Positions 8,846-31,619 of a stretch of DNA of 64,000 nt are shown here, piece after piece. Position 1 is the first letter of the stretch. Each line of letters opens with the position of its first letter. The notes beneath the pieces are model-generated. The model was not told where the DNA came from. It worked only from the letters and a program-made list of their open reading frames with translations, and did not search any database. The position numbers and the translations under genes were made by a program. The DNA comes from Candidatus Omnitrophota bacterium (GTDB lineage: Bacteria; Omnitrophota; Gorgyraeia; Zapsychrales; Zapsychraceae): assembly GCA_028280285.1 (NCBI GenBank), contig JANQMA010000011.1, positions 58,520 to 122,519 on the forward strand, read 5' to 3'.

Positions 8846-10128
8846 ACCATTAATTCCTTAAATAAATTTTTGTAATTTTCCGCATACTTTTCGGGCAGTA
8901 TTTTTTCCCGTGCCGCTTTAATATCAGTTTTGGCAACATCTTCTTCAAATTCAAACAAAGTCTGGTATAAGCCACGGCTGAAATCTTCCTCATCATAACA
9001 ATCAACAAGATAACCTGTTTGGGGTGATGTAATAAAATCCGGGGCTACGCCTCTGTTAAACGCGATCACACGGCTGCCGCACATAATCGCTTCATTGATC
9101 ACCATCGGTCCACAGTCATCTATAGAAGGACAGGCAAATATGTCACACGCCTGATAGGCCTTGACAATTTTACGGTTATCATCCAATAATCCTAAATTAA
9201 TCCACGGGCAACCGATTTGATCAGCGGCGAAACCATTGGCATTGCCAAACGTCACCAAGGCAAAGTTGTCTTTCTCCTCTGCAGAAAGTCTTTGCATAAG
9301 CAGTTTAAGCGCACCGAGAAGATGCTTGCCCCCTTTGCGTGGATCGTTTAGATTAAAACATCCATATAAAATAATTTTTTTATTGAGCGGAAGCCCTAAA
9401 TCTTCACGCGCTTGCGTTTTATCACCCATCATAAATTCTTTATCATTAATACCGATTAATATCTTCTCTATACGACGATTACGCGATAATAAACTTTTAT
9501 GACACTGCTCATGCGACCATGATGTGGGCGCGACAAAGGTGAGCGGGATATCAGCAAACATGCTCCGTTTTTCCTCCCAATGCTTCGCAATCACATCATT
9601 TCTTAATTGAACTCCGAGCTGTGGACACTCTTCACACTTTTCTTTAAACTTTTCACAGCCAGCATTAAAATGGCAACCACCCGTGAGTGGCTCAATATCC
9701 ATCGTTGTCCACACCATTGGTGTTTTAAAAACATCGTAGATCCGCCGGATAAGTCTTGCCGAAAGAAAATCCTGAACCGAATGCAAACAAATAATATCCG
9801 CGCCTTTTAGATAAGATCGCAACCGGTTAAAAGACACAGCCGGCAGATTAAAATTAATTAAAGTTTTAGGCTCGCATTTAAGCGTGTAATACTTGCGCCG
9901 CAACCTGTGGATCACCAGGTTGATATAATGCCAATGATATTTAAAGACATTTAAAACAGATTTAACCGGATGGCCTTTAACAAGCTCAACCACCTTCTCT
10001 ACTTTAGATTTTTTTCTATAAACAAGCATTTGGGAATCGCAACCGCAGGCATTAAGCGCCTGGTGAAGTGTCAAAACAGCACGGCCGGCCCCATCAAAAT
10101 CATTGTTTGTTAAATGGATTATTCGCAT
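8842..10128 (-). CDS. Glycosyltransferase family 1 (GT4-like, GT-B fold)
   Basis: 428 aa. N-terminal MRIIHLTNNDFDGAGRAV and a C-terminal nucleotide-sugar-binding half typical of GT1/GT4 retaining transferases. Confidence 0.7.
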   Translation of the reverse strand: MRIIHLTNNDFDGAGRAVLTLHQALNACGCDSQMLVYRKKSKVEKVVELVKGHPVKSVLNVFKYHWHYINLVIHRLRRKYYTLKCEPKTLINFNLPAVSFNRLRSYLKGADIICLHSVQDFLSARLIRRIYDVFKTPMVWTTMDIEPLTGGCHFNAGCEKFKEKCEECPQLGVQLRNDVIAKHWEEKRSMFADIPLTFVAPTSWSHEQCHKSLLSRNRRIEKILIGINDKEFMMGDKTQAREDLGLPLNKKIILYGCFNLNDPRKGGKHLLGALKLLMQRLSAEEKDNFALVTFGNANGFAADQIGCPWINLGLLDDNRKIVKAYQACDIFACPSIDDCGPMVINEAIMCGSRVIAFNRGVAPDFITSPQTGYLVDCYDEEDFSRGLYQTLFEFEEDVAKTDIKAAREKILPEKYAENYKNLFKELMV

Positions 10129-12038
10129 TTCACATGTACTGTATTATATTTCTCAGCATTCTTGAAAAAAGATTCATATTCCTCAGCACCGCCAGAACTA
10201 TATCTTTCCGGTGGTAAAATATAATCACCGGCCGGAGCTCTTAAAAAATTATCAATAATCTCAATCGCTTCATCCGCATTAGTATAACCTTGCAAATTTT
10301 TATCAAATGTTTTTAAAGCATTTGGCCGCACCCTTTGATCACCGATGCGATATAGACCCAATGTCGGGATTTTGGAAAAAATAGATTCAAAGTAAGCCGT
10401 ACTTGCTATATCACATATGACATAATCGGCTTTTACCAACCATTCCTTTAATTTTTTTTCAGAATACAGAATATTTTTTGCTTTAGAATCCTCGATAACT
10501 TGCCCCATATAATCAAATCCTTGCCCCTGATTAATCAATCCCTTCCAAACAAAATCAAACTGTGGATTGTTTTGAAAATACTGAATGAATTTTTTATGAA
10601 GACTTATGTACTCCATAGGAAAAGATTGACATAATTCTACAGGACGGCTTGGCCATAAAGCATCCATAACAGGCACAAATAAAACCATTTTATTTTTATT
10701 AGCTGTTTTTTGTTTACGCTTCTCTATAATTTCACCATAAGATTGTTGAAAGTAAGAATATGAATAAAATTTGGTCGAAACGCCAGGCCATTGCCGGGCC
10801 AAAGTTGTTTCATGTTCAGCCTCTTGATCGGTCATCGTATAATAATAATCAAAAATCTTCTCCAGAAACATAAGCCTCGATGGTGAATCAGACACATCAC
10901 ACCCATGGGAAAGTCCTATCTTTTTACATGTTGTTATCCTCCTCGCCGCATCCAAAGCCCCGAGCGCTTCAGGAGTATACAAAACATGTACAGCAACAGC
11001 ATTTATTTTGAATTGAGTGAGGATCTGCTCAAAAACCTTGGAACTCTTAATTATCTCTGGAACATAAAATAATAAACACTTTTTTAAACGCGACATTATT
11101 AAAGGTGTAACCTGCGCTCCTGCATGATCATCAATCCAATCCAAAATTTTCGCATCAGATAATTTTTGCTCAACAGAGGCCCATTGAGGAAGATTGAGCT
11201 TTTGACCGGCATTTAAAGCGTCAACATTTTCAACAATATCACCGGTTTCCGCGTTAATCATCTTTCGTCTACTCAACCAATACACACTAATATTTTTTTT
11301 AAGAAGGCTGCGCGTCATATCCAAAATATAAGGACTTTGGGTTAAGAATAATACACGCCCATCAAAATCTGAATTTTGTTTAGAAGCCGCATTGGTTTTT
11401 AATTGAAAATTTTGGAAAAACTCTGAAAAAGAAAATTTAAACGGAAGAGGTTTTAAAATTTTGTTAATACTCTCTTTAAATAAAACAAATTTTGATCTGT
11501 AGCCGTGAGCGTTATTTACTATTTTATTTATGACTTGGACTCTTTCAAATTCAATACCCAACTGCTTGGCCACGACGCCACAAACTCTCGAATATGTACT
11601 CTCCGCTCCTCGAAAGGCTAAAAAACAATCAAATTCATCATTTGCATACTTTTGACTACAAAAAATAATACGTGTGGGATTTGCCGTATTACAAAATTTT
11701 TTTAAAATTTTTGTCGTTAAAATAATATTATCAACCAAATATTTAAGATGATGAAAATACAGCGAGGCCACGTTCATTTCCAAACGCTTGGCTTCATCAA
11801 AAATATCTTGCACAACATAATCGAAATCACTTAACCATTTTAACTGTTCAGATAAATACGCCTTTGTGTCACCACGCATTTCTCCTGAAGAGTAGTAATC
11901 TTCTAAAGCCTCAAAATCAATTCCACATTGCTCTAAACAATAGTAAACCTGCTGATTTAGAGCGACAACCTTAAAAGAGCTCTTATCTTCCGGAAAAACA
12001 ATGTCTTTTGAAAAATCTTCTATTAAATAATAAATCAT
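10119..12038 (-). CDS. Large TagF-like (CDP-alcohol phosphotransferase / capsule-synthesis GT-B family) putative transferase
   Basis: 639 aa. C-terminal motif ADYVICDIASTAYFESIF resembles the TagF D-x-L-I-T-D-Y-S-S-x-x-F-D active-site motif. A paralogue lies at 31620..33527. Confidence 0.4.
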   Translation of the reverse strand: MIYYLIEDFSKDIVFPEDKSSFKVVALNQQVYYCLEQCGIDFEALEDYYSSGEMRGDTKAYLSEQLKWLSDFDYVVQDIFDEAKRLEMNVASLYFHHLKYLVDNIILTTKILKKFCNTANPTRIIFCSQKYANDEFDCFLAFRGAESTYSRVCGVVAKQLGIEFERVQVINKIVNNAHGYRSKFVLFKESINKILKPLPFKFSFSEFFQNFQLKTNAASKQNSDFDGRVLFLTQSPYILDMTRSLLKKNISVYWLSRRKMINAETGDIVENVDALNAGQKLNLPQWASVEQKLSDAKILDWIDDHAGAQVTPLIMSRLKKCLLFYVPEIIKSSKVFEQILTQFKINAVAVHVLYTPEALGALDAARRITTCKKIGLSHGCDVSDSPSRLMFLEKIFDYYYTMTDQEAEHETTLARQWPGVSTKFYSYSYFQQSYGEIIEKRKQKTANKNKMVLFVPVMDALWPSRPVELCQSFPMEYISLHKKFIQYFQNNPQFDFVWKGLINQGQGFDYMGQVIEDSKAKNILYSEKKLKEWLVKADYVICDIASTAYFESIFSKIPTLGLYRIGDQRVRPNALKTFDKNLQGYTNADEAIEIIDNFLRAPAGDYILPPERYSSGGAEEYESFFKNAEKYNTVHVKCE

Positions 12039-12077
12039 TACCGAAACTTATATGATGTGCATCTATTGAATTAATAT

Positions 12078-13067
12078 TTATACTCTAATAAAGCACTCCT
12101 GAGCATTCTGTTCGTATTGATCCACAAGCCGCTTCACAATATTTTTACCTTCCTCAGATGCTAAGCTGCTAATCACATCCCATTTTTTCTTCCTGTCCGC
12201 TTCATCGATGACACGCGGACATTTTTCCCGTTTCATAATACTCAAAGTATCTTTTGAAAATTTTGTGCCAATCACATCGGAGCAATGACCCAAAACCTTC
12301 TCTGTATCTTCAGCTAATTGTTCAAATATGATTGTCGTAATTTGGTTTTTATGACTTTTATCCAACGCATCATACGCTTTGTTATGCTGATCATCGATAT
12401 AATCAATCATAAAGATAATACGATCCATCGGTTCTAAACTCATAAACTTTTCAGCCCATGGAAGCGCATAATAGGGCACTACCCCCCATTCGGTTTGTAT
12501 CGTTGTTGCCCCCATACGAGGGCTTTCATAAACATCCTCTCCATAGTTTTTTGTATGCCAAGAATATATAATGTCAACAGGGTGGCGAATGATATTAAAC
12601 ATTTTTACTTTAGGAAAGGCTTTAAAATACGTTTGATTTTGCCATACGCCATTATGAATCATATAAACATTTATAGGATTAACATTTTTAATCCGTTCAT
12701 ACACCTCCACCCCTTCTTTGGTATATAATCGACGGACATACTCCTGAGGATCTCTATAGCTCCAGGCTCCTGTATAATCTCCGGGACGAAAATTAACATT
12801 GCGCCCTAAAAAACTATCATAAAGCGCTAAATTAACATGATACCGAGCAAGATATGCCGCTGACTCATGATCCATATACCCGATCGTACTCAGTATGGCC
12901 ACCTGCTCTAGAATTGCACTGTGCACAATGTTTTCTGCACGCTCTAAACTACATATTAATGGGCACAGAAGTGTTTTTCCTGATCTAGTAAAGCCGGTGA
13001 CAAAAACTAAATTATCGGAGACAATAGATTTAAATAATTTTTGTGAATTCACATATATTCCTTCCAC
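12078..13067 (-). CDS. PAPS-sulfotransferase-fold protein
   Basis: 329 aa. 5'-PSB loop FVTGFTRSGKT and 3'-PB motif RHPVDIIYSW match sulfotransferase nucleotide-binding signatures. GTG start. Confidence 0.65.
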   Translation of the reverse strand: MEGIYVNSQKLFKSIVSDNLVFVTGFTRSGKTLLCPLICSLERAENIVHSAILEQVAILSTIGYMDHESAAYLARYHVNLALYDSFLGRNVNFRPGDYTGAWSYRDPQEYVRRLYTKEGVEVYERIKNVNPINVYMIHNGVWQNQTYFKAFPKVKMFNIIRHPVDIIYSWHTKNYGEDVYESPRMGATTIQTEWGVVPYYALPWAEKFMSLEPMDRIIFMIDYIDDQHNKAYDALDKSHKNQITTIIFEQLAEDTEKVLGHCSDVIGTKFSKDTLSIMKREKCPRVIDEADRKKKWDVISSLASEEGKNIVKRLVDQYEQNAQECFIRV

Positions 13068-13076
13068 ATGCCCTCT

Positions 13077-13625
13077 TTATTTCTGTAATACTCCTTTTTG
13101 AGATAAAAATGCTTTAATTTTTTGAAGACTATCTTCAACAGACTCCTTATAAGGATGCACTATAACATCAGGAGTTCTAGGCCTCTCATATGGCAAATCC
13201 ACACCTAATAGTTGTGGGTTATCTTTCGGCATAGTTGTAGCGTAAACTTTTTTAGGATCATTGTTAATGCAATCAGCAATATCCGCATCTAAAAATATTT
13301 GTATATAATTTTCCCATTTCCGTCTTAAAAAATCTCTGACAATATATTGTCCGGCAATATTAGCCACAATGACATCTATTCCGTTTTTTGCAAGCAAGCT
13401 TGCAGCAAATGCAATATTTTTTGTTACGGCGAAACGTTCTTCTAAACCATATCCAAATTTCTGCTCATAAAAATCTCTTACAGTATCTCCATCAATTAAT
13501 TCTACAGGATGGCGGTCGCACTGCTGAAGTTCCTTTTTTAAAGCTAAACCTAATGTGGTCTTACCAGAACCTGATACGCCTGTTAACAAAATAATAAAAC
13601 CAGAACGCTCTTTAACTTTTAACAT
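13077..13625 (-). CDS. Adenylylsulfate (APS) kinase homologue; candidate CDP-phosphoramidate 3'-kinase (Cj1415-like)
   Basis: 182 aa. P-loop LLTGVSGSGKTTLG and CysC-like length. Confidence 0.8.
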   Translation of the reverse strand: MLKVKERSGFIILLTGVSGSGKTTLGLALKKELQQCDRHPVELIDGDTVRDFYEQKFGYGLEERFAVTKNIAFAASLLAKNGIDVIVANIAGQYIVRDFLRRKWENYIQIFLDADIADCINNDPKKVYATTMPKDNPQLLGVDLPYERPRTPDVIVHPYKESVEDSLQKIKAFLSQKGVLQK

Positions 13626-13631
13626 AATTGT

Positions 13632-14564
13632 TTAATCTTTTTTCTGAGCACACACAATAGCTGTTTTTGCTAAACAGCACAAAAATCCGAGAAAGGATAC
13701 CTTAGTAATTTTGTTAAAAAACCCGTCAACATTGCGGTTCAACGTAAAATTATTTACCTTTTCAGAAATACAATAGTAAGCACCATCGCATGACACCATT
13801 TGAAACAATGCATTTTTTAAAACTTTCCTTAATCTCATATAAGAATAAAGTCTCTTTTTAAGCGTATAAGATTTTTTCGTAATTCCTTTTGTCATAAACG
13901 GCAAGTTAAAAAAAGAAGTATTACGAAAACGTCCGAATATAATGCCCAATCTAGAATCACATAAAATTGATTTAAACGCCGGAAATAGCTCGTTTTCTTC
14001 ATAACAAATAAAATAAACACCCGAACGTATAAACTCTCTAAAAGAATTAAATGCCAGCCCCATCCCGCTACAATTACGCTGGGCTAATAGAATACGGCCT
14101 CCCTTTTTTAAAACACGTCGAGCTTCTGTCAGGCAAAAATTAATATCATAAACATACTGTAAAACACCTACCGCTATGACCACATCAAATGATTCATCTT
14201 CATAAGGCAACCTTTCATCTAAGTTTCCACATCGGAAATCAAATAAATCTTCTGAAACAACATTTTTGCAACGCTGTTTTGCACACACAAGTAACTTTTC
14301 ACTAACATCAAGTCCAGAGACTTTATATCCCAGCTCACATAATTTAGCAGCAGTATGCCCTGCCCCACAGCCGAGTTCAAGTACACGCGAACCTTGAGGA
14401 AGGTTAAACTTTTGTACATGATTAATAACTTTTTGTTGGCGTGAATTAACATAATAAGCAACATGTTGATCGGAAGAATCATAATGCTTATCCCACGCCA
14501 AAATATTTTCGGTATTCCACCACCCTTTCACATTTTCCATTTGAACATCTCGATCAATTGCCAT
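13632..14564 (-). CDS. Class I SAM-dependent methyltransferase
   Basis: 310 aa. VLELGCGAGHTAAKL SAM-binding motif. Confidence 0.65.
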   Translation of the reverse strand: MAIDRDVQMENVKGWWNTENILAWDKHYDSSDQHVAYYVNSRQQKVINHVQKFNLPQGSRVLELGCGAGHTAAKLCELGYKVSGLDVSEKLLVCAKQRCKNVVSEDLFDFRCGNLDERLPYEDESFDVVIAVGVLQYVYDINFCLTEARRVLKKGGRILLAQRNCSGMGLAFNSFREFIRSGVYFICYEENELFPAFKSILCDSRLGIIFGRFRNTSFFNLPFMTKGITKKSYTLKKRLYSYMRLRKVLKNALFQMVSCDGAYYCISEKVNNFTLNRNVDGFFNKITKVSFLGFLCCLAKTAIVCAQKKD

Positions 14565-14579
14565 TCTAACCCCTTCATC

Positions 14580-15872
14580 TTAAGTATAATTTTGTTTACC
14601 CTTTCCCGGAAAAATTTTTAATTTTAATAATCTAGGTACATGTAAAATGCGGACAAAAAATGCATAAACATAAGCTGCAATGGCTGTAAAACGTGGAGGA
14701 GCAATCATCGCCCGACGGGTTCCTGTATTCATAAGCGTTAAATAGAGTGTTATTTTCTCAACATCATCAAAATATTTTTTTTGATAATCATAATCAAAAA
14801 AAAATTTTTTATCTAATTGCGTCAAATCCAGCACAACATCCTTTGTAGATTCAATCAATTCAATCAGCGCTTTGGTTTCTTTCTTAATCAAATCAATTTC
14901 ATCATCCCGCAGCCACTTATTATATGATTGAAGGAGTCCTTTATTAACGCCCTGTTGTTTACCAGAATGGGAATTACCATGCCAATCAACGCCGCCTATT
15001 GTCGGATTAATTAAAGTGTCATCATAATCAATACCGACGCATTTAGATAACATCTGCATAGATTCAACAACATTTTTAACCAGGTAGTCATAACTCAAAA
15101 CAATAAACCTTTGATCACACCCGTATTTTTCCTGCAATAATACTAACCGGGTAACCGCCACCTTCCACGCGCGGATTAACGCCTTTAAATCATAATTGTT
15201 AAAACTCTTGATAAAATTATTAGGAAAAGGCGGATAGGAAAACCTCCGTGATCCATAATACCGTTTAACCAGTCGTGATTTTTCAGAAGCAATAAGGCCG
15301 AGTGGATTTCTGAGCGAATGCATAAAAACCGAACCGGAAAATTCTTGAAAAAAATCTTCAATATTGGTCAAATAAAGCCCCGCACTGGCATGCATCACCA
15401 CATACCCGGCCTCTTTACCGTGGGCCCCATTATCCCATGCCTCAAAATAGGCCTTATGCCGCGCGTCATAATACCCGGCGACAGAACCGGCATCTTTGGC
15501 ATAATCAACAACGAGATCTTTAAATTGATCAAAACTAAAATCGGTTTTAACCGCACCGTAATATTGCTTCTCTAAATAATTTTGCCTTACCCCGATTTTA
15601 TCACCCTGTTCTTTACCATATTTTAAAATGACATCCGGTTTTTCTTCAGGGATACCTAATAATGAAAATAACGATTCCTGATTAAAATCATCCCGTTTAG
15701 GAACCGTCATGGGTATTCCCAAATGATTTTCAAAACGCTTATAAAATTTATCAGAAAAAGGAAACCCTACTTCCACAGGATAACTGGCTATTTGTGGATG
15801 CCCATCAAATAAACGTGCTAACAAAGATCCGCCGCTCCTTTGCACACCCCCGATAAAAATGGTCTTATACAT
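14580..15872 (-). CDS. PAPS-sulfotransferase-fold protein
   Basis: ORF 14580..15890 starts at TTG. The in-frame ATG at 15872 gives MYKTIFIGGVQRSGGS (5'-PSB loop). A 3'-PB-like motif LRNPLGLIAS is present. It abuts the stop of the upstream cytidylyltransferase gene. Confidence 0.6.
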   Translation of the reverse strand: MYKTIFIGGVQRSGGSLLARLFDGHPQIASYPVEVGFPFSDKFYKRFENHLGIPMTVPKRDDFNQESLFSLLGIPEEKPDVILKYGKEQGDKIGVRQNYLEKQYYGAVKTDFSFDQFKDLVVDYAKDAGSVAGYYDARHKAYFEAWDNGAHGKEAGYVVMHASAGLYLTNIEDFFQEFSGSVFMHSLRNPLGLIASEKSRLVKRYYGSRRFSYPPFPNNFIKSFNNYDLKALIRAWKVAVTRLVLLQEKYGCDQRFIVLSYDYLVKNVVESMQMLSKCVGIDYDDTLINPTIGGVDWHGNSHSGKQQGVNKGLLQSYNKWLRDDEIDLIKKETKALIELIESTKDVVLDLTQLDKKFFFDYDYQKKYFDDVEKITLYLTLMNTGTRRAMIAPPRFTAIAAYVYAFFVRILHVPRLLKLKIFPGKGKQNYT

Positions 15873-15874
15873 GA

Positions 15875-16639
15875 TTATTCCCATCTCCAATCATGTATCC
15901 AGGGCGAATCACCAACAGCCACCAACTGTTGTTGATATAACTGCAAATCATTGACATTATCTGCTTCACACCAACGGCCATCAACACCGACCGTCTCAAT
16001 CCTTCCCTGAACCATCAAAACTTTATTTAATAATGCCGTCATATCTAATTTATCTAAATCCTCTGAAGACATTGTTTGAGTTATAGCATCAACACCCGCC
16101 CAACCTGCGGGAGTGAATTTTAGCAGTCCCATGTATTGGCCTTGAATATCGTCAACCGAACGCGGAGTCTGGCCAATTTCCGTCAACAGTCCATCATCAT
16201 CAACCTTGAACGTTTCCGCATCAGACAAAGGATCTTCAAAACGTAAACGCCACAACTTTTCCCATAAGCGGTCGTAGCTAATAACGATATCCCCCTTTGC
16301 CTGTTTAATACTTTCAATAATTTTAGGGTGATAAACTATATCCGCGTAGGAAACAATGCAGTCTTCATTCATTAAATAAGAACCGGCGCAAAACAAAGAT
16401 TGCACCATATTAGTCTGTTCCCATCTTTCGTTAACCAAAACCTCACAACCGCTGTCAACTAACATATCTTTACGGTATCCGCCAACGACAACCACGTCAT
16501 CCAACCCGGCATCCTTTAACGCGCTTATTTGCCAAGACAATAAACTTCGATCAACAAGCTTGGCTAAACACTTGGGCTTGTCTGCTGTTTCATCCCCCAT
16601 CCGGGATCCCCGTCCCGCCGCTAAAATAATGGCCTTCAT
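15875..16639 (-). CDS. Sugar/phospho-nucleotidyltransferase (candidate CTP:phosphoramidate cytidylyltransferase, Cj1416-like)
   Basis: Internal ATG gives MKAIILAAGRGSRMGDETADKPK. ATGA overlap with the upstream stop. ~254 aa. Confidence 0.75.
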   Translation of the reverse strand: MKAIILAAGRGSRMGDETADKPKCLAKLVDRSLLSWQISALKDAGLDDVVVVGGYRKDMLVDSGCEVLVNERWEQTNMVQSLFCAGSYLMNEDCIVSYADIVYHPKIIESIKQAKGDIVISYDRLWEKLWRLRFEDPLSDAETFKVDDDGLLTEIGQTPRSVDDIQGQYMGLLKFTPAGWAGVDAITQTMSSEDLDKLDMTALLNKVLMVQGRIETVGVDGRWCEADNVNDLQLYQQQLVAVGDSPWIHDWRWE

Positions 16640-17292
16640 GAGCAACTCATCTTTTCTTTAAAAATTTTGTGGAATAACCGCTGATCACAGGTTTGAAAAG
16701 GGTTATTGCGTTCCGGATGCCACATCGTCGCAAAGATTGGTAATCCCTTTACACCCATGGCCTCAACAATTTCATCTGAAGTTTGTGCCACAACATCCAA
16801 CTGCTTATCGACATCAGATGCTTTAAAACCAAAATGATGGTAGGAGTTCACCCTTATACTTTCAGATTCAAAACATGATTGAAAAGCACCGGGCGTTATA
16901 TCAACCTCGTGTTCTTTGGCGACATGCACATCCGCGTCACATTGGCTTAACTTTCCGCCAAAATAAACATGTAAGAGCTGCAAACCTCGGCAAATACCAT
17001 ATAAAGGCAACTTATTTTCAATGGCGAACTTCAATAATGTTTTCTCTGTTGCGTCACGTACTGGAGAATCTCCCACGCTATCTCCACCGGTTAAAATGAA
17101 CCCGTTTAACGCGTGTGCATTCACATAATCAAGAACCGGCTCTCCAAGATTAGGAATTAAAACCCACTTTTCCCCCTCTAATAAAAAATCAAGGCACGCG
17201 TACCAATCCCGCGCTAAAGCATCTCTTGGTTCGTTATATCCCTCCGCGTTAGATGTTCTTAGCGTAACGCCTATACGTAATTCTTTATTCAT
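16636..17292 (-). CDS. Class I glutamine amidotransferase / gamma-glutamyl hydrolase (Cj1417-like)
   Basis: 218 aa. GATase1 nucleophile elbow LPLYGICRGLQLL, and HPE near the C-terminus. Confidence 0.75.
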   Translation of the reverse strand: MNKELRIGVTLRTSNAEGYNEPRDALARDWYACLDFLLEGEKWVLIPNLGEPVLDYVNAHALNGFILTGGDSVGDSPVRDATEKTLLKFAIENKLPLYGICRGLQLLHVYFGGKLSQCDADVHVAKEHEVDITPGAFQSCFESESIRVNSYHHFGFKASDVDKQLDVVAQTSDEIVEAMGVKGLPIFATMWHPERNNPFQTCDQRLFHKIFKEKMSCS

Positions 17293-19684
17293 AAAGCGGA
17301 TTTAATGCCTTTGCCCCACAATTAAGTTCAACGGTTCCTGATTTAACTAATCTCTCAAAGGTGCCTTCTCCGCATCCAATAGCCGCCAATAATCCAAATT
17401 CCGCGCAACGGATTGCCATATGGGAATTAGCCCCGCCATATTTGGTTATTACACCCGCAATATCTTTTGTAAAAATCCAATCAAATCCAGGATCCGCGTT
17501 TTCGATACAAACAATTTTACCCGTCATATCCGCATTGGCTTTGGTCGCTGAATCAACAAAAATAACCGGCGCGACTATTGATAATGTACCGATAAAATTG
17601 GGCGCGCTGCGATGCAGAGGCAAAACATACATATCTTTTATATCGCGCAAAATATAACAAAATTTAATTTCCTTGGATAACTTAAATTTACTCTTTGCCT
17701 GCTTTATTTCCTTTTTAAAATAAGATTTTTGATCCTCATGTTTGATCGATACAGGACTATTTAATATCGATTCAATTGTCAAATGTGAAATATCTTCCCG
17801 TGACAATCCTATTTGGCCTCCCCACACAGCTAAAGACTCAAGAATATCTGAAATATTTTTGGTAAATACAAACTTCCCGTATTCACGCCCCACAATAGAC
17901 AAACGCATATACTCCAATAAATCGTCTACTGAGAAATGACCGAAATCAGATTCTTTGAGTAAATTTTCTATAGATACACGTTCTTGAGATGTCAGCAAAA
18001 ACTCATCTGTTATGACATGCGCGTGCAAACCATTAGAATGATTAAATAATTGATCCCGGTCAGAGTAACATAACGATGTAATATCATATGTTCCGGGCCG
18101 CAAGTGTCCGTAACGCTTCAGAAAGGATTCCTGTGATTTTATCTCTTTACTAACAGCTTCGATGTCCATAGCCATTTCAGAAGCAACCGTTACAATCGAA
18201 CGTTTAAATAATTTCATGCGCTCAGCGGTGATCGCCCCTCTTTTGACCATTGATCTTAGAAGTGACTCGACAATAAAAGCGTGCCTTGCGATGATCGAAA
18301 ATGGGAACGTACCTAACTCTTTGCATTCATCAATCAAATGTTGAATATGTCCCAATGTTTCCCGTTGCACCTCTTTGTTTTGATCACGTCTGTTTTGACG
18401 CTTGGCCAAATCGTCAATAGAAGTCAGCGCCATACGCAAGGAAGAAGTTTCCGCTAAATTCAAACATTGTTTGGTTAACTTGGATAATGCTGTTTTAAAT
18501 TCCTGATATTCCTGTTTTGTAAAAATATCACCGTATCGCTCATGAAAAGTTTCTTCAAATGAAAAATCAACACACGTTTGCATAACATCAAACTCTACTT
18601 TATCGTGCAGCTCGGGATGTTCGCGTAAGCGGTCTAACCACGCATTAACCATTTTTTCCGCCAAGCCACCAGTAAGGCCCTCTGGCAATAATGAATTAAA
18701 ACTATTTCTCACATCGATATAGGGCCGCCCCATTATTCCGGTCATTAACTCTACATCGGGCAGTGTAGAATACTTCATTTCCTGACGGGCTAACCGCCAT
18801 ACTGTCTGGGTAATTAATTTACGGTACAACGAAAAGGCTAACGGTTTAGGGGTGACACCTATCATCTCTGCCGGATTCCAGTCAGACATGGTTGTTAAAA
18901 TACTTTTTTCTCCAAAAATATTGTCACGTCTTTGGACATATGATTCAATTGTCCTGGTAACATCTGGTAAATTTTCCAAAACCCGCTTTTTAATTCCCTT
19001 TTCCCAGGCAGTAGTCAAACAAATCGGCCGTACTTGAAATAAATACGGTATTTCATTATGTGTGAGTCCAAACTCAATATCTAAGGCGGATTGCTCAGAT
19101 AATAATTTAACTTCTTCAACCAAATCCAAAACACTTTTGATTCGTTTAGACTGGATATACTCCTTCTGGTATTGGTGGTTTATTAAAACTGTTTTATGAA
19201 CACCCGTTCCTCCCGTGACAGAATCCGTTCTCCCTGAAAAATCGTCATAATTGATCACATAGTACGGCGCTCCGTCCTCGAGGTTATACGTCATAACAAC
19301 ACCACTGACCGCAACATCACTAATCATCGGCTGCACCAAAACCTGGTCATCCCCGTGTTCCTGATAGGAAGAAATAACCTTATCAATGGCCTTTGTAATG
19401 TCTGTTTTACTTTGCACATCAATATGTAGACAACTATGAAAAGCCCCGGCCATAGACTGCTCATGCGTATCTTCACATTGCGCACTGCTGCGTACAATTA
19501 GCTCTTTAAAGGAAATAAATTCTTTCTGAATTTGATTTAAAACCGCCTCTGATTGCGAACGCCATTGGGCGACAGTAAAATAATATAGCGGCGCAACCTG
19601 TCCTGTCTTAAGTAATGGCGCGATCCGCTCAAGCGTCTCAGCCTTTGTTCCGAATTTAAATTTTGATTTAGTGATTGAGCCCAT
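17285..19684 (-). CDS. PEP-utilizing / pyruvate-phosphate-dikinase-like kinase (candidate L-glutamine kinase, Cj1418-like)
   Basis: 799 aa. N-terminal PPDK_N ATP-grasp-like domain (LIVRSSAQCED...VLVQPMI...SGVVMTYN). C-terminal phosphohistidine mobile domain (GGANSHMAIRCAEFGLLAAIGCGEG). Confidence 0.75.
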   Translation of the reverse strand: MGSITKSKFKFGTKAETLERIAPLLKTGQVAPLYYFTVAQWRSQSEAVLNQIQKEFISFKELIVRSSAQCEDTHEQSMAGAFHSCLHIDVQSKTDITKAIDKVISSYQEHGDDQVLVQPMISDVAVSGVVMTYNLEDGAPYYVINYDDFSGRTDSVTGGTGVHKTVLINHQYQKEYIQSKRIKSVLDLVEEVKLLSEQSALDIEFGLTHNEIPYLFQVRPICLTTAWEKGIKKRVLENLPDVTRTIESYVQRRDNIFGEKSILTTMSDWNPAEMIGVTPKPLAFSLYRKLITQTVWRLARQEMKYSTLPDVELMTGIMGRPYIDVRNSFNSLLPEGLTGGLAEKMVNAWLDRLREHPELHDKVEFDVMQTCVDFSFEETFHERYGDIFTKQEYQEFKTALSKLTKQCLNLAETSSLRMALTSIDDLAKRQNRRDQNKEVQRETLGHIQHLIDECKELGTFPFSIIARHAFIVESLLRSMVKRGAITAERMKLFKRSIVTVASEMAMDIEAVSKEIKSQESFLKRYGHLRPGTYDITSLCYSDRDQLFNHSNGLHAHVITDEFLLTSQERVSIENLLKESDFGHFSVDDLLEYMRLSIVGREYGKFVFTKNISDILESLAVWGGQIGLSREDISHLTIESILNSPVSIKHEDQKSYFKKEIKQAKSKFKLSKEIKFCYILRDIKDMYVLPLHRSAPNFIGTLSIVAPVIFVDSATKANADMTGKIVCIENADPGFDWIFTKDIAGVITKYGGANSHMAIRCAEFGLLAAIGCGEGTFERLVKSGTVELNCGAKALNPLYE

Positions 19685-19690
19685 TTTAAA

Positions 19691-20758
19691 TTACTTTAAG
19701 ATTTGCGCACTTTCTTCAATTAAACTCCATGTGAGTGGACAACCTCTTTGAATAGACTGCGTTGCCTTTTTTCCTAAAATATCTTTTAAATATTTTGGCG
19801 GTAATCCGTGACCGGGACGAATAGAACGCACATTCTCAGCATTAAACTCTTCGCCTTCCGCTATATCTTTGACGGCAAAAAGAGACCTGGAAAATACCCT
19901 GGATTTTTCACCCTCTTCGGTTAACCGAAACTCTTCTTCTCCCAGGCTTTTTTCAACCTCCCGCACCAATTTAACCATTTCTTTAAATTCCTCTGGCTGC
20001 ATGGAAAAAGCAGAATCCGGCCCTCCCATGCTTCTATCCAAAATAAAATGCTTTTCAATAATACAGGCTCCAAGAGCCACAGCACCGGCGGCCACAGATG
20101 AAGTGAGTGTATGATCGGACAATCCAATCTCCACGCCTAATCTTGATTGCAATGCTTTAATCGCATTAATATTCATCTCTTCCAACGGTGCCGGATACGT
20201 CGATGTACACTTAAGAACCGCAACCTGCTTATTGCCTACTTTGTAACAAGCCGCTAATGCCTCCTCCAAGTCTTCCCAAGTAGCCACACCAGACGACATT
20301 ATGATAGGCTTACCTTTTGAGGCCGTATACTCAATCAACGGAATATCATTGATTTCACATGAAGCAATTTTATATGCCGGTACTCCGGCTGACTCCAAAA
20401 AATCAACAGAAGAATTATCAAATACCGAGGAAAACCCGATCACACCGCAATCTTTCGCATACTCAATTAACTCTTTTTGCCACTCCCAGGGAGTATAGGC
20501 TTCCTTATATAAATCATATAATGTGCGGCCATCCCAAAGCGTACCGTGATTGAGTTTAAAATAATCGGTATCCGCGTCTATTGTGATGGTATCAGGCGTA
20601 TACGTTTGCAATTTAACCGCATCAGCACCGCTATCCGCCATTGCCTTAATCGTCTTCTTAGCCAACTCTTTGTCATGCAAATGATTAGCCGATAATTCAG
20701 CAATAATAAAAGCCGGATACCCCGCTCCAACACTTCTACCTTCTATGTCAAAACTCAT
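19691..20758 (-). CDS. NeuB-family nonulosonic acid synthase (N-acetylneuraminate/pseudaminate/legionaminate synthase type) with C-terminal SAF domain
   Basis: 355 aa. AELSANH, DAVKLQTY and SDHT motifs, plus a SAF-like C-terminus. Confidence 0.85.
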   Translation of the reverse strand: MSFDIEGRSVGAGYPAFIIAELSANHLHDKELAKKTIKAMADSGADAVKLQTYTPDTITIDADTDYFKLNHGTLWDGRTLYDLYKEAYTPWEWQKELIEYAKDCGVIGFSSVFDNSSVDFLESAGVPAYKIASCEINDIPLIEYTASKGKPIIMSSGVATWEDLEEALAACYKVGNKQVAVLKCTSTYPAPLEEMNINAIKALQSRLGVEIGLSDHTLTSSVAAGAVALGACIIEKHFILDRSMGGPDSAFSMQPEEFKEMVKLVREVEKSLGEEEFRLTEEGEKSRVFSRSLFAVKDIAEGEEFNAENVRSIRPGHGLPPKYLKDILGKKATQSIQRGCPLTWSLIEESAQILK

Positions 20759-21442
20759 TTAATTGTCCTTTAAAATAATTGGTAGAATTTTATCCAAAGC
20801 GTTAACAACGTAATCCGCCGGCACAGGATTTGCCTGGCTTTCCGGATAAAACATTCTCTGTCCATTTTGTTCTAATTGAATACTCATCATTCCCATTACT
20901 TTTGGTGCATGAAAATCTTTATAAGGGTTATCGCCGACATATGCGGCCACTTCAGCATCTATATCAAATTCATTTAAAATTTGCTCATAAGGCACCTGCG
21001 AAGGCTTGGCATTCTCTCCTTCTAATTCATCGGTATATACAATACTTTGCATGTGATCTTCTAAACCCAATACCTTTACTTTATTGCGCTGGACGCTCGC
21101 CATTCCGTCAGTAATCAACCCTATCATGCAACTCTTGTTATGCAATTCAGATAAAATTTCTTCGACGCCATCAAATAAATTGATATTTGGCAAATGTGTT
21201 CTATAGGCAGTTACCATCTTTTTTACAAAACGCTCTTGATCCAAATCATGTTGAGCGCATAACACATTAAATACCTTGCCGCGGCCGTTTTGCTCTACAA
21301 TAGAAACCAATTGATCAAATATGCGTTTGTCATCCAATCCACATTCTTTTGTTACAAATTTAGCAACAGCCCGAAAACCGCTTAAAACATAATCGTATTC
21401 GCGATACAATGTGTCGTCTAAATCAAATATAACAGCCTTCAC
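20759..21442 (-). CDS. HAD-superfamily hydrolase
   Basis: 227 aa. MKAVIFDLDDTLY (DxD HAD motif I). GTG start. Confidence 0.7.
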   Translation of the reverse strand: MKAVIFDLDDTLYREYDYVLSGFRAVAKFVTKECGLDDKRIFDQLVSIVEQNGRGKVFNVLCAQHDLDQERFVKKMVTAYRTHLPNINLFDGVEEILSELHNKSCMIGLITDGMASVQRNKVKVLGLEDHMQSIVYTDELEGENAKPSQVPYEQILNEFDIDAEVAAYVGDNPYKDFHAPKVMGMMSIQLEQNGQRMFYPESQANPVPADYVVNALDKILPIILKDN

Positions 21443-23809: not shown

Positions 23810-25543
23810 CTATAAATTCGCTGTAGATGCCCCCCGCACAGCTGTTTCTTTATCTTTTCTTCCCGGATGCCGTTTTGTGTTTTGAGCGCCCAACTCATTT
23901 ATCGCCCACCATGAAAGCTCAACAATCTCTTCATCAGGCAGATCGCTAAAGTTCGTCCTAACGGCGTCGCCTTGTTCGCCTAAACGTAGGAAATATTGTT
24001 CAACCATATCATCATCCGCCGGGGCCACAACGCCGGTGACCGCTTTGGTAATAAGTCCCTTTTCCATGGCCAAGTCCCAGAAACTTGTGCCAGGGTATGC
24101 TGTTACAAAAAAGAACACTTCAGGCTTAAGCCCGATTTCTTTACACACCTCAACCGTTTCGGCAACTGTCTGGCGTGTTTCGCCTGGAGAACCAATCATA
24201 AAGGAACAGTCCGCATACCCGAGAACCCTTTGTGTCTCCCGCACAGCAATTTTGATTTTTTCCTGTGTTTGCCCGGATTTATCAATGCTTTTTAAAATGG
24301 TTGGACTTGCCGTTTCAACACCATAACCTGCCTGACGCATTCCTACCTCACGCCCTAATTCCAGAATATTAGGCCGGCCCTGCTTTTTCGCACGGACGAC
24401 ATCATCCGCAATAATATTGGTCCTGCACGCGCCTCCCCAAGTCACATCAAGCCCTGTTTTTTTACGTTGATTCTTAAGGGCCTCACAAAATTCCATAGCC
24501 CAACGATAATCTGTAAAAAGAAGATCATCTAAGAAATGCATATACCCTGCATCGTATCTGTCATGCAGATATTGCATTTCATCAACAATTTCCTGAGGAG
24601 ATCTTAAACGATACGTTTTACCCAAGTAAGAGGCATAGCAATAATCACATGCCTTTGCCGCATACGGACAACCACGTGAAGCCAAAAGCTCCACCGAGTA
24701 GGTATCACACGTACTCTTTCCGTCACTCCACTTATTTTCCCAGTTTAAATGACCAAGAGGATTCTGTTTATAAATTTCATCAATAGCAAAACGTGAACGA
24801 AGCGGCCACGGCAGTGTATCAAGACCATCCCATCTTGTCTTAAAACCGGTACGCTCGCCATTATTTCTAATTTCCCACTCACCTTTTTTTATTTCATGTT
24901 TATAGACAACGCCGGCACATCCTTCCAGTGAAACACCTTCTTCTAAGCGATGCAAAAGTTCTGATGTTGTCATCTCTCCTTCTTTATTAACGGCGATATC
25001 AATGGGAAGCATTTTGACCATAAATTCCGGCATACAGGAAGAAATACCCCCACCAAGAACAATGGGTATTTCTGGAAATACTTTCTTACAGTAGGTAGTA
25101 ATCTGTTTAATGCGGGCGTACTGCGGTATAATCCCACCAATCATGATCACATCAGGATGATAATGATTAAATTTTTCATCAATTTTCGCCTCAACCCACT
25201 TTGACATCTCCTCCGGGGTTTTATCCATAGGCTCCTTACGCAAAGCATTCAAATCCAGTGTTTCGACATAGTGACCATCCATAGCCGCTACGGAACAGAC
25301 ATAAGCCTGGCCTAAAGGAAATATATTGGGGTAGGACCACTCACGGATCGGCGCATTGATCATAAGGACCTTAAGTCCTTTATTCCGTAGAGGAAAGAGA
25401 CCCTCAGAATCATCTGTTGTAATCCGCGGAGCTTCAGGGAACTCATTCCCGCCTAAGGCATTAAACCGCTGGTAAAAGCGCTCCGGCGCCTTAGGCACAT
25501 TGATATTAACGAACGCGTCATTTTCTTTGGTTTTTGTAGTCAT
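23810..25543 (-). CDS. Cobalamin(B12)-binding radical SAM enzyme (non-canonical Cys spacing)
   Basis: 577 aa. N-terminal B12-binding-like region (KVLMINAPIREWSYPNIFPLGQAYV). Cys cluster GCPYAAKACDYC (CX6CX2C). Confidence 0.7.
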   Translation of the reverse strand: MTTKTKENDAFVNINVPKAPERFYQRFNALGGNEFPEAPRITTDDSEGLFPLRNKGLKVLMINAPIREWSYPNIFPLGQAYVCSVAAMDGHYVETLDLNALRKEPMDKTPEEMSKWVEAKIDEKFNHYHPDVIMIGGIIPQYARIKQITTYCKKVFPEIPIVLGGGISSCMPEFMVKMLPIDIAVNKEGEMTTSELLHRLEEGVSLEGCAGVVYKHEIKKGEWEIRNNGERTGFKTRWDGLDTLPWPLRSRFAIDEIYKQNPLGHLNWENKWSDGKSTCDTYSVELLASRGCPYAAKACDYCYASYLGKTYRLRSPQEIVDEMQYLHDRYDAGYMHFLDDLLFTDYRWAMEFCEALKNQRKKTGLDVTWGGACRTNIIADDVVRAKKQGRPNILELGREVGMRQAGYGVETASPTILKSIDKSGQTQEKIKIAVRETQRVLGYADCSFMIGSPGETRQTVAETVEVCKEIGLKPEVFFFVTAYPGTSFWDLAMEKGLITKAVTGVVAPADDDMVEQYFLRLGEQGDAVRTNFSDLPDEEIVELSWWAINELGAQNTKRHPGRKDKETAVRGASTANL

Positions 25544-28853: not shown

Positions 28854-29690
28854 TTACGATGCAATATGTGCCCTTAATTTATTGGCAACAGGAACTTCCT
28901 TTTCATGTATCCCTAAAACACCGTCTCCCATCGCGAGCTCAATTTTGCGTACAGCCCCAACCAACCGGCGAAATCCTTCCGGCTCAACCGAAGCAGACTG
29001 ATCAGAGCCATACATCGACCGTGAAAGCGTAATGTGCCGTTCAAGCGAGGTAATCCCCATAGCCGCCGCCGCATAAGATACAGCCAGTCCAACTTCATGC
29101 CCGCTGTAGCCAACAGCGCAGTCATATCTTTGACGCAATGTGTTGATGCAATTTAAATTCGCGTCCGTATCTTCCATCGGATAGGTCGACATGCAGTGCA
29201 TAAGTTCATAAGGACACTTGGCATCCTGGAAAATCTCCACCGCCGCATCGATCATAGCCACATCTGTCATGCCTGTGGAAATAAAGGTATGTCTTCCTTC
29301 GGAGGCCACCTCTTTAAGGAAGTTTTTATCGACAATCATCGCCGAGGCAATCTTGTTATACTTGCAATTATATTGAGCCAAAAACTTTTGGCTTTCTATA
29401 TCCCAGGCGGACGCGAACCAATCAATTCCCTTTTCTTTACAATACCGGTCGACTTCATCATATTCGGCCTTGCCAAACTCGAGCCCTTCTTTTTGTTCGC
29501 GCTGCGTTGTCCCCCAAGGGCTTTCCCGGGGAGAATCAAGCATCTCTTTGGTGTAGACAAGGTCAATGGTCCTTTTTTGAAACTTAACCGCATCAGCTCC
29601 GGCATCTTTGGCCACATCGATCAGCTTCTTTGCGGTTTCAATATCACCATTATGATTAATCCCTATTTCTGCAATGACATAAATGGACAT
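28854..29690 (-). CDS. NeuB-family (ulosonic acid / sugar-phosphate aldolase-type) synthase lacking the SAF domain
   Basis: 278 aa. IAEIGINHNGD and DAVKFQK motifs, no C-terminal SAF extension. Good AGGAG Shine-Dalgarno upstream. Confidence 0.75.
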   Translation of the reverse strand: MSIYVIAEIGINHNGDIETAKKLIDVAKDAGADAVKFQKRTIDLVYTKEMLDSPRESPWGTTQREQKEGLEFGKAEYDEVDRYCKEKGIDWFASAWDIESQKFLAQYNCKYNKIASAMIVDKNFLKEVASEGRHTFISTGMTDVAMIDAAVEIFQDAKCPYELMHCMSTYPMEDTDANLNCINTLRQRYDCAVGYSGHEVGLAVSYAAAAMGITSLERHITLSRSMYGSDQSASVEPEGFRRLVGAVRKIELAMGDGVLGIHEKEVPVANKLRAHIAS

Positions 29691-29698
29691 AACATCTC

Positions 29699-30181
29699 CT
29701 AGTTCTTTTTGATTAATAAATTGTCATATAGTTTACGGATAACCCCATCCCCGCCATTTTGGGGAACAATCACTTGCGCTATATCCAAAATTGTTTGGCT
29801 AGCATCTTGCGGCGCAACAGGATAACCGACAGCTTTCATCACTTCAAGATCATTAATGTCGTTACCGACATACAAAACATCATTAAGATCAACACCGCGT
29901 TCTTGGCAATATTTTGTAAGAACGCTTAATTTGTCTTCAACACCGTGAATCACATCAATGGCCAGCTTATTGGCACGGACCTTTACAACCGCATTGGTTT
30001 CTGTCGAAATGATGACTTGGGGTTTGTCCATCTTCTTAATCAGTGAAATCGCCAGTCCGTCACCACGATGACAAAAAACCGCCTCGGTGCCGTTCTGGTC
30101 AACCAAAACCCGGTTATCCGTTAACACACCGTCAAAATCGTAAACAATCAACTCTATTTTTTCTAAATCTAACTCTTTCAT
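29699..30181 (-). CDS. KdsC-like HAD phosphatase (ulosonic acid-phosphate phosphatase)
   Basis: 160 aa. IVYDFDGVLTDN motif I and overall KdsC/YrbI family pattern. Confidence 0.8.
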   Translation of the reverse strand: MKELDLEKIELIVYDFDGVLTDNRVLVDQNGTEAVFCHRGDGLAISLIKKMDKPQVIISTETNAVVKVRANKLAIDVIHGVEDKLSVLTKYCQERGVDLNDVLYVGNDINDLEVMKAVGYPVAPQDASQTILDIAQVIVPQNGGDGVIRKLYDNLLIKKN

Positions 30182-30186
30182 AACAA

Positions 30187-30909: not shown

Positions 30910-30919
30910 TTATACTCCT

Positions 30920-31609: not shown

Positions 31610-31619
31610 AGACAGCATC

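Follow-up and report, generated by a model that had tools for sequence, protein, structure and literature searches.

The closest described relative of the locus considered here is the methyl phosphoramidate (MeOPN) pathway of the Campylobacter jejuni capsule. As outlined in the published accounts, Cj1418 phosphorylates L-glutamine at its amide nitrogen, Cj1416 acts as a cytidine triphosphate (CTP):phosphoglutamine cytidylyltransferase that yields cytidine diphosphate (CDP)-L-glutamine, Cj1417 hydrolyzes that product to glutamate and cytidine diphosphoramidate (CDP-amidate), and Cj1415 adds a 3'-phosphate; in the same accounts, free phosphoramidate is not a substrate of the Cj1416 cytidylyltransferase. 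Cj1419 and Cj1420 are methyltransferases, and Cj1421 and Cj1422 are genetically defined MeOPN transferases. Knockouts of Cj1419 and Cj1420 in C. jejuni gave no visible change, so that even in this organism methylation lacks an assigned enzyme, and in 2025 the enzymes that place methyl phosphoramidate on the capsule were still listed for future in vitro characterization. The C. jejuni "CGPTase" paper, considered as a source on the MeOPN transferase, concerns another gene. A 2019 review gave MeOPN-modified sugars as known from Campylobacter only, and a 2022 review called the glutamine kinase "C. jejuni-specific"; a 2024 preprint noted the trio of kinase, hydrolase, and cytidylyltransferase in an archaeal Borg extrachromosomal element. 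Here we analyze a related operon in a 64,000-nucleotide (nt) stretch of a Candidatus Omnitrophota genome (contig JANQMA010000011.1, positions 58,520 to 122,519), hereafter the window.

The operon very probably makes an activated phosphorus-nitrogen (P-N) donor, as in the Campylobacter capsule. Its core cassette belongs to an already known kind; the new part is an eight-gene arrangement with sulfotransferase-fold proteins, which is undescribed as far as a literature search shows, since no paper was found that combines MeOPN and sulfotransferase (and none was found for PRK05849, the family model of the glutamine kinase). Our reading of the whole, drawn from sequence comparison and held at a probability of about 0.55, is that 3'-phospho-CDP-amidate would be made, that one or both of the sulfotransferase-fold proteins ST1 and ST3 would transfer its phosphoramidate to a pseudaminic-acid glycan, and that an O-methylation would follow. 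An earlier note on this DNA had described five of the open reading frames (ORFs), and these are present on the minus strand at the coordinates it gave, with the motifs it quoted. Its claims on domain content (Pfam PPDK_N and PEP-utilizers, Peptidase_C26/GATase, NTP_transf_3, Methyltransf_11, APS_kinase) and on gene overlaps also hold: the kinase and amidotransferase genes share 8 nt, ATGAATAA, and the amidotransferase and nucleotidyltransferase genes share ATGA, both read directly in the sequence. The note left the ST3, ST1, and T639 genes of the same operon uninterpreted, and the sulfotransferase-fold pair is the most distinctive feature of the locus. The ten co-directional genes of the block (10119 to 21442, minus strand; intergenic distances of -16 to +39 nt) are as follows.

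17285-19684, minus strand: glutamine-kinase homolog, 799 amino acids (aa); Pfam PPDK_N and PEP-utilizers.
16636-17292, minus strand: class I glutamine-amidotransferase-fold hydrolase, 218 aa; Pfam Peptidase_C26/GATase.
15875-16639, minus strand: small nucleotidyltransferase, 254 aa from ATG, with a TTG at 16645 also open; Pfam NTP_transf_3.
14580-15890, minus strand: ST3, sulfotransferase-fold protein, 436 aa (about 430; start at 15890, 15884, or 15872), Sulfotransfer_3; between the nucleotidyltransferase and methyltransferase genes.
13632-14564, minus strand: class I S-adenosylmethionine (SAM)-dependent methyltransferase, 310 aa; Methyltransf_11.
13077-13625, minus strand: P-loop kinase of the adenosine 5'-phosphosulfate (APS) kinase superfamily, 182 aa; APS_kinase.
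12078-13067, minus strand: ST1, sulfotransferase-fold protein, 329 aa from GTG (deposited form 324 aa, start at 13052); Sulfotransfer_1.
10119-12038, minus strand: T639, probable LIC12162-family protein of the glycosyltransferase B (GT-B) fold, 639 aa, with a TagF-like C-terminal nucleotide-binding domain.
19691-20758, minus strand: pseudaminic acid synthase PseI (TIGR03586, 476.4 bits; cut-off, 340).
20759-21442, minus strand: haloacid dehalogenase (HAD)-family hydrolase, two genes upstream of the glutamine-kinase gene; weak matches to the pyrimidine 5'-nucleotidase models TIGR01993 (57 bits) and YjjG (49 bits).

The assignment of the trio to the CDP-amidate-making family is well supported by homology and gene order. 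In the 799-aa protein, Pfam recognizes PPDK_N (5.5e-12) in the N-terminal ATP-grasp part and PEP-utilizers (6.9e-10) in the C-terminal phosphohistidine domain, and the NCBIfam model NF004508/PRK05849 matches residues 5-797 at 915.4 bits (cut-off 501). NF004508 is an unnamed model whose function we read through proteins that JGI names "glutamine kinase": two of these (P0058 and P0085, 45-47% identical to the window protein) match the same model equally well, at 916 and 903 bits, which places the 799-aa protein in the glutamine-kinase family. The presumed phosphohistidine, His755 in GGANSHMAIRCAEFG / GGANSHMAIRCAE, is invariant across 13 diverse homologs. The 218-aa protein matches Peptidase_C26 (2e-26) and carries LYGICRGLQ (Cys) and WHPE (His-Glu), the motifs of a Cys-His-Glu triad. 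Its best NCBIfam match is NF045546 (GCDPHdlase, the gamma-glutamyl-CDP-amidate hydrolase function of Cj1417), at 95.7 bits (cut-off 250) over residues 7-201 against positions 3-187 of 198, and all five amidotransferases examined from other cassettes likewise match that model below its cut-off (87-131 bits). The nucleotidyltransferase begins ILAAGRGSRMG and matches NTP_transf_3 (7.9e-19); among solved structures it comes closest to LicC, a CTP:phosphocholine cytidylyltransferase (1jyk, 2.1e-10), and the libraries searched held no family model specific to Cj1416. On sequence grounds, we therefore regard the 218-aa protein as a candidate gamma-glutamyl-CDP-amidate hydrolase of the Cj1417 type and the 254-aa protein as a candidate CTP:phosphoglutamine cytidylyltransferase of the Cj1416 type.

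An alternative is that the likeness stops at the superfamily level, with a phosphoenolpyruvate (PEP) synthase, pyruvate phosphate dikinase (PPDK), or antibiotic phosphotransferase, a PuuD-like or anthranilate-synthase-like amidotransferase, and a housekeeping CysC. Pfam alone shows generic domains, and the closest solved structures are a PEP synthase for the 799-aa protein (3e-05) and PuuD for the amidotransferase (1.7e-12). Structure searches with the trio and the 182-aa kinase found no solved structures of C. jejuni pathway proteins. Against this alternative, the PEP synthase, PPDK, and rifampin-phosphotransferase models reach 15-41 bits on the 799-aa protein against cut-offs of 456-1700 (the highest being 40.7, 33.5, 26.9, and 22.8 bits, with cut-offs of 850, 598, 456, and 999), compared with 915 for NF004508. 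PuuD and anthranilate-synthase models reach 52-55 bits on the amidotransferase, about 40 below NF045546, and the trio is colinear across 68 loci from many phyla. On the NCBIfam scores we rejected the PEP synthase, rifampin phosphotransferase, and PuuD identities, and we give a superfamily-only likeness hardly any weight. The earlier note had named as refuting its reading a PPDK-like protein that falls with PEP synthases or antibiotic phosphotransferases and an amidotransferase that falls with PuuD or anthranilate-synthase types, and the profile searches gave neither outcome; its identification of the trio as being of the Cj1418-Cj1417-Cj1416 type is supported by the NF004508 and NF045546 matches together with the synteny.

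The order of steps has to be corrected. The earlier note had the amidohydrolase releasing phosphoramidate before the cytidylyltransferase acts, whereas the published order is kinase, cytidylyltransferase, hydrolase, 3'-kinase. Following that order, the 799-aa enzyme would phosphorylate L-glutamine at its amide nitrogen via His755, the 254-aa cytidylyltransferase would join cytidine monophosphate (CMP) to it to give CDP-L-glutamine, and the 218-aa hydrolase would free glutamate to leave CDP-amidate. From homology and synteny, we consider these first three steps highly probable.

The cassette itself is common in sequence data. A word-indexed search returned 5802 glutamine-kinase family proteins at E <=1e-5 among 8000 candidates, and when single genomes representing each species were scanned, at least 584 bacterial and archaeal species held a relative, including Alteromonas, Aeromonas, Pseudomonas, Desulfovibrio, Planctomycetota, Verrucomicrobiota, Acidobacteriota, Cohnella, candidate phyla, and several archaea. 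Cultured carriers include Alteromonas ponticola and Aeromonas sanarellii. The closest species-representative match to the window kinase is 48% identical and comes from a gammaproteobacterial metagenome-assembled genome, with no Campylobacter among the best 80 matches, so the window represents neither Campylobacter nor a sequenced species representative. The non-Campylobacter setting claimed in the earlier note therefore stands, and a cassette outside Campylobacter is indeed present here; with at least 584 species carrying a relative, its occurrence there is less exceptional than the note implied. Synteny was counted over 80 species loci, the best 80 of the at least 584. The kinase, amidotransferase, and nucleotidyltransferase genes are colinear in 68 of these 80, across many phyla, with most of the misses on short contigs; such recurrence in independent loci argues that the trio arrangement is not due to chance. 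An APS-kinase-like gene is present in 56/80, most of them without a sulfotransferase-like gene. Methyltransferase families f9 and f10 accompany the cassette in 14/80 and 13/80 loci, and a NeuB-family gene lies near it in 14/80 (and near ST1-like genes in 17/80 metagenome loci). The commonest accessories in species genomes are a protein of about 190 aa without a Pfam match (16/80) and, after it, a formyltransferase-like protein of about 240 aa (22/80). This pair sits just upstream of the glutamine-kinase gene in several loci (L007, L018, L020, L022, L074, L076, and others, where L-numbers such as L004 or L083 are labels of related loci compared with the window), and in gammaproteobacteria it is often preceded by a TagF-like Glyphos_transf gene, a family that accompanies the cassette in nine gammaproteobacterial and other loci. 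Further accessories are a GDSL-like protein, a sulfatase-family protein, and LIC12162-family proteins of the TIGR04331 type.

Together, the eight genes represent a conserved variant of this cassette, found mostly in marine metagenomes. ST1 has a sulfotransferase fold with an RxPxDxxxS motif, and its best matches are enzymes with bound 3'-phosphoadenosine 5'-phosphate (PAP). It combines a Walker-A-like loop, TGFTRSGKT, with RHPVDxxYSW, a motif of the 3'-phosphate-binding type, and its family keeps both the G-x4-GK(S/T) loop and RHPVDxxYSW. ST1 thus has the fold, the 5'-phosphosulfate-binding loop, and the 3'-phosphate-binding motif by which a sulfotransferase is recognized. ST3 matches Sulfotransfer_3 (5.7e-09, residues 11-291); its loop reads GVQRSGGSLL, and LRNP...S is also present. 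We propose ST1 as a candidate phosphoramidate transferase and ST3 as a candidate group transferase with a 3'-phosphonucleotide donor.

Both proteins are repeatedly found with the cassette. A word-indexed search of 5.8 billion proteins gave 14 ST1 homologs. In the contexts of ST1 homologs (L082, L083/L084, L085/L086, and L087) and of a T639 homolog (L089), the ST1-like gene lay in all five cases within a cassette whose other members are glutamine kinase, amidotransferase, nucleotidyltransferase, and APS-kinase-like genes. The usual companions in these contexts were a second sulfotransferase-like protein (about 420-430 aa), a methyltransferase of about 311 aa, and another protein in the range of about 640-655 aa; genes for NeuB and CMP-sugar synthetase were also frequent there. 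In L089, a 429-aa protein with a faint Sulfotransfer_3 match and a 311-aa methyltransferase occupy positions equivalent to those of ST3 and the window methyltransferase. By tblastn, ST3 is 47% identical to its counterpart in L083, T639 is 28-29% identical in L082 and L085, and the methyltransferase is 32-42% identical in L083 and L085. ST3 homologs (39-55% identity) lie in or beside glutamine-kinase cassettes in eight loci (L083, L093, L095, L105, L116, L131, L142, L169). Overall, ST1, ST3, and T639-like genes and a methyltransferase gene of about 310 aa recur with the cassette in more than 10 independent metagenomic loci, most of which have a cassette-type kinase only, and we rejected on this basis the idea that the sulfotransferase-like genes are chance neighbors. 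In L083 (6262-6951), L084 (4638-5327), and L087 (1825-2562), a gene of the Inositol_P family (CysQ-like 3',5'-bisphosphate nucleotidases) is placed between the amidotransferase and nucleotidyltransferase genes, which fits disposal of a 3',5'-bisphosphonucleotide by-product.

The gene that would link the core cassette to the sulfotransferase-fold pair encodes the 182-aa kinase. It matches Pfam APS_kinase (8.4e-29) and lies under every NCBIfam cut-off (PRK00889, 125.9 bits against 244; TIGR00455, 108.7 against 138.7; PRK05541, 108.7 against 127). Typical cassette kinases (L007, L004, L055) match PRK05541 at 157-172 bits against the same cut-off, and show LSxF for ISPY/VSPY and xVVG for the (F/L)TG of four solved APS kinases. 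In APS kinases, the (F/L)TG motif and an adjacent Phe contact the adenine of APS. Nearly all aligned cassette-linked kinases, the 182-aa kinase included, have an aliphatic residue where this motif has Thr; three keep the APS type. The window kinase itself reads IAGQY, without the Ser-Pro of ISP(Y/F), and LLG for (F/L)TG. Its nearest relatives, in L116 (58%) and L092/L093 (54%), have the same IAG(T/S)Y and the same kinase-ST1-T639 gene order; the next, in L034 (47%) and Cohnella L074 (34%), both lie beside a glutamine kinase. By these comparisons, the 182-aa kinase is a divergent superfamily member of a small cassette-linked clade, set apart from the usual cassette type. The earlier note's statement that it matches Cj1415 is accordingly not secured, given its PRK05541 score and its placement in a different small clade; it is a candidate CDP-amidate 3'-kinase, whose sequence does not assign it the Cj1415 function.

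We propose that this kinase would add a 3'-phosphate to CDP-amidate, giving 3'-phospho-CDP-amidate, a structural analog of 3'-phosphoadenosine 5'-phosphosulfate (PAPS). ST1 and/or ST3 could then bind 3'-phospho-CDP-amidate as sulfotransferases bind PAPS and transfer phosphoramidate to a hydroxyl group of a sugar, perhaps on pseudaminic acid or adjacent to it, with release of 3',5'-CDP, and the 310-aa SAM methyltransferase may O-methylate the phosphoramidate. That the sulfotransferase-fold enzymes of the module are phosphoramidate transferases, with 3'-phospho-CDP-amidate replacing PAPS, is a tentative proposal to which we give slightly less than even odds.

A different division of labor would produce two decorations. 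T639 would transfer phosphoramidate from CDP-amidate with release of CMP, as TagF does with CDP-glycerol, and the divergent APS kinase would supply PAPS to ordinary sulfotransferases ST1 and ST3, so that the glycan would be both sulfated and phosphoramidated. Much of what speaks for this division of labor also weighs against phosphoramidate transfer by ST1 and ST3. The 182-aa kinase is of the APS_kinase fold, stays under the cut-off of the cassette-kinase model PRK05541 (108.7 against 127), and resembles solved APS kinases (96 bits, 2e-26) as much as it does most cassette kinases (75-87 bits). In its clade members L034 and L074, the kinases have ISPY, and they score above the cut-off of TIGR00455, the APS-kinase model. 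L093 (7566-8996) and L105 (4315-4836 and 10701-11237) each hold two APS-kinase-like genes of differing subtype (VISPF against the IAG or LSN type); because of this second kinase, two 3'-phosphorylated donors may coexist there. The fold of ST1 is closest to that of PAP-bound enzymes, and T639, which is related to the TagF-like family of the nine gammaproteobacterial and other cassette loci, is a plausible alternative phosphoramidate transferase. The metagenome scan with an ST1 profile adds to these points. It found 130 relatives, and among the 39 relative-bearing loci of at least 8 kb, glutamine kinase is present in 13 and an APS-kinase-like gene in 23; 12/39 have no core cassette gene, which indicates that more distant ST1 relatives have other contexts, and 7/39 have the ST1-like gene beside an APS-kinase-like gene alone, without glutamine kinase. 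In L124 (7840-19536), the ST1-like and APS-kinase-like genes accompany AsnB, an aldehyde dehydrogenase, and a nucleotidyltransferase, again without glutamine kinase. Two further points weigh against the preferred reading: the amidotransferase score of 95.7 bits is under the NF045546 cut-off of 250, and the comparison with Cj1415-Cj1418 of C. jejuni is indirect, with NCBIfam models as proxies.

Other observations run against a two-decoration scheme. At least 10 ST1-bearing loci have a cassette-type kinase, with LSxF and xVxG variants, as the sole kinase found (L082, L083, L085, L089, L095, L127, L129, L145, L152, L166), and in most species loci the motif set of which these are variants matches PRK05541, not APS kinase. 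The window kinase lacks ISP(Y/F) and (F/L)TG and fails TIGR00455. No sulfate-activation gene was seen among the window ORFs scanned, a scan that took in ten ORFs at 44-63 kb and left nine others of at least 150 aa (43-62 kb) outside it. The presence of the 3'-kinase in 56/80 cassettes, mostly without a sulfotransferase-like gene, argues that this kinase belongs to the phosphoramidate route. Finally, GT-B/LIC12162 genes lie beside CMP-sugar synthetase genes in L019 and L060, which points to nonulosonate transfer. Overall, we consider two separate decorations the main alternative, though a less likely one, and keep phosphoramidate transfer by ST1 and/or ST3 as the preferred reading.

The module typified by L124 has features of its own. 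It also occurs in L111, L115, L122, and L125 and carries a GIAxKKKWR kinase motif, two PhyH dioxygenases, methyltransferases of the TylF type and others, and, as its nucleotidyltransferase, a small one. Its product may be another 3'-phosphonucleotide-activated group.

T639 has a precomputed match to Pfam PF27859 (LIC12162), and its match to TIGR04331 is very weak, far under the cut-off. A profile of the T639 family aligns with the TagF-like family f13 (Glyphos_transf-like) over the C-terminal domain with 93.8% probability (E 1.7e-07) and has no meaningful match among PDB sequences, solved TagF/TarL included. In L019 and L060, the LIC12162-family genes follow the CMP-sugar synthetase gene, which suggests nonulosonate transfer. 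T639 is therefore either a nonulosonic acid transferase using CMP-nonulosonate (pseudaminic acid), which we think the likelier, or a CDP-X phosphotransferase, perhaps itself a TagF-like phosphoramidate transferase. The methyltransferase (Methyltransf_11, 1.9e-23) is found in 26/80 loci holding an ST1-like gene and is a candidate O-methyltransferase for the phosphoramidate or another group.

In a further alternative, the pathway has another end product. CDP-glutamine or CDP-amidate would serve a phospho-amino-acid or non-methylated phosphoramide decoration, or a small-molecule P-N natural product, and the methyltransferase and sulfotransferase-fold proteins would act elsewhere on the glycan. 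Several points speak for this: a C. difficile phosphotransferase uses a CDP-amino-acid donor directly, non-methylated phosphoramide occurs in the lipopolysaccharide of Xanthomonas and Shewanella, and the Cj1419/Cj1420 knockouts showed no visible change. Accessory genes also vary widely among cassettes, from formyltransferase-like and GDSL to sulfatase and TagF-like. In the window, however, the hydrolase is retained and translationally coupled, so that conversion of CDP-glutamine to CDP-amidate is probable; glycan genes surround the operon, and the methyltransferase recurs in the extended module. We regard another end product as improbable, and return to a methylated phosphoramidate on a pseudaminic-acid glycan as the reading that we favor.

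The surroundings of the operon concern the proposed acceptor. A single glycan locus extends from position 1 to about 39,600, and its pseudaminic-acid genes include PseI, GNAT, CTP_transf_3, DegT, and CBS-epimerase; pseI belongs to the same operon as the cassette and ends 6 nt upstream of the glutamine-kinase gene. A second ulosonic/nonulosonic module (28854-31639, minus strand) comprises a 278-aa NeuB-family protein without SAF, a KdsC-like HAD protein (Hydrolase_3), a methyltransferase, and a second CTP_transf_3; because this module has its own CTP_transf_3, the island may activate two different CMP-sugars. The other island genes encode deoxy-amino-sugar enzymes and a sugar N-formyltransferase, transferases of the GT1 and GT2 types, an ABC exporter resembling MsbA, a PMT_2 protein, and two B12-binding radical SAM proteins (4780-6732 and 23810-25543, minus strand). 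The first radical SAM protein is 77% identical to its counterpart in L085, the adjacent epimerase 81%, and DegT 71%, compared with 30-42% for the cassette genes, which indicates that the locus is a mosaic. No flagellar genes were seen in the island (1 to about 39,600), and MlaE and ABC transporter genes lie further along the window. The pseudaminic acid route is not known to require a phosphatase, and the HAD hydrolase at 20759-21442 might therefore act on a nucleotide by-product. A 635-aa ORF (31620-33527, minus strand), without a Pfam match and not similar to T639, overlaps the start of the MsbA-like exporter gene (33475-35343) by about 50 nt.

Base composition divides the operon. GC content is 34-38% in the ST3, methyltransferase, 182-aa kinase, ST1, and T639 genes (10119-15890) and 40-44% in the glutamine kinase, amidotransferase, nucleotidyltransferase, and pseI genes, with a window mean of 41%. 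The lower GC content relative to the trio and pseI suggests that the accessory block from ST3 to T639 was acquired separately, as one block. A scan for promoter-like and terminator-like sites gave no enrichment over shuffled sequence and is therefore uninformative on internal regulation. Runs of G or C of at least 7 were absent from 9-21 kb, and a phase-variable transferase in the Campylobacter style was rejected on that ground. The only homopolymer of at least 9 in the same interval is a nine-A run at 14796-14804 (T9 on the coding strand) within the ST3 gene.

The literature treats phosphoramidate on glycans as a Campylobacter hallmark. Since the donor cassette occurs in at least 584 species from many bacterial and archaeal phyla, P-N glycan chemistry is probably far wider than measured. 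The linkage of the cassette to sulfotransferase-fold proteins provides a testable candidate for the transfer step and a rationale for a PAPS-like 3'-phosphate on the donor. If the proposal is true, it would add a new group-transfer chemistry to the sulfotransferase fold, explain why the pathway ends in 3'-phosphorylation, offer a tractable route to the transfer step, and mean that many marine bacteria carry nonulosonate-containing glycans with P-N decoration. Even with a mistaken transferase assignment, the locus would predict a glycan with sulfate and phosphoramidate. Should Cj1421 and Cj1422 prove to hold a sulfotransferase-like domain, the variant would be less new and the mechanism better supported.

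Among known systems, the C. jejuni MeOPN pathway probably shares with the window four enzyme families and a methyltransferase in a surface-glycan locus, coupled trio genes, and the predicted product 3'-phospho-CDP-amidate. In the window, these genes are fused to a pseudaminic-acid operon instead of a kps capsule locus, in another host; the kinase is of a different subtype from the PRK05541 cassette type, and the operon adds two sulfotransferase-fold genes and one probably of the LIC12162 family. The MeOPN transferase genes of C. jejuni are phase-variable, whereas 9-21 kb of the window has no poly-G or poly-C tracts of at least 7. Genes 308-311 of the Cobalt Borg encode the same three enzymes outside Campylobacter, recognized as MeOPN-type by structure annotation; there they are joined with phosphonate (PEP mutase) functions, and no 3'-kinase or sulfotransferase-fold gene is reported there. 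The flagellar Type A glycan of C. difficile (CDP-threonine; FtaC, FtaD) likewise uses a CDP-activated, amino-acid-derived donor for a surface glycan, but its CDP-amino acid is the direct phosphotransferase donor, without amide N-phosphorylation, a hydrolase, or a 3'-kinase. With the TagF/TarL CDP-alditol phosphotransferases and the LIC12162 family (PF27859, TIGR04331), T639 probably shares the GT-B fold; its C-terminal domain aligns with the cassette-linked Glyphos_transf-like family and has no significant match to solved TagF/TarL. The PAPS system (CysC, sulfotransferases, CysQ) resembles the proposed second half of the pathway in three respects: an APS-kinase-fold enzyme would make a nucleotide donor phosphorylated at the 3' position, P-loop-like and 3'-phosphate-binding motifs occur in enzymes of the sulfotransferase fold, and related cassettes contain a CysQ-like gene. 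The loop of PAPS-dependent sulfotransferases has the form SGTT, and that of ST1 is SGK(S/T). The window genes travel with the glutamine-kinase route and not with ATP sulfurylase, their kinase lacks ISP(Y/F) and (F/L)TG, and the group proposed to be transferred is PO2(NH2), not SO3.

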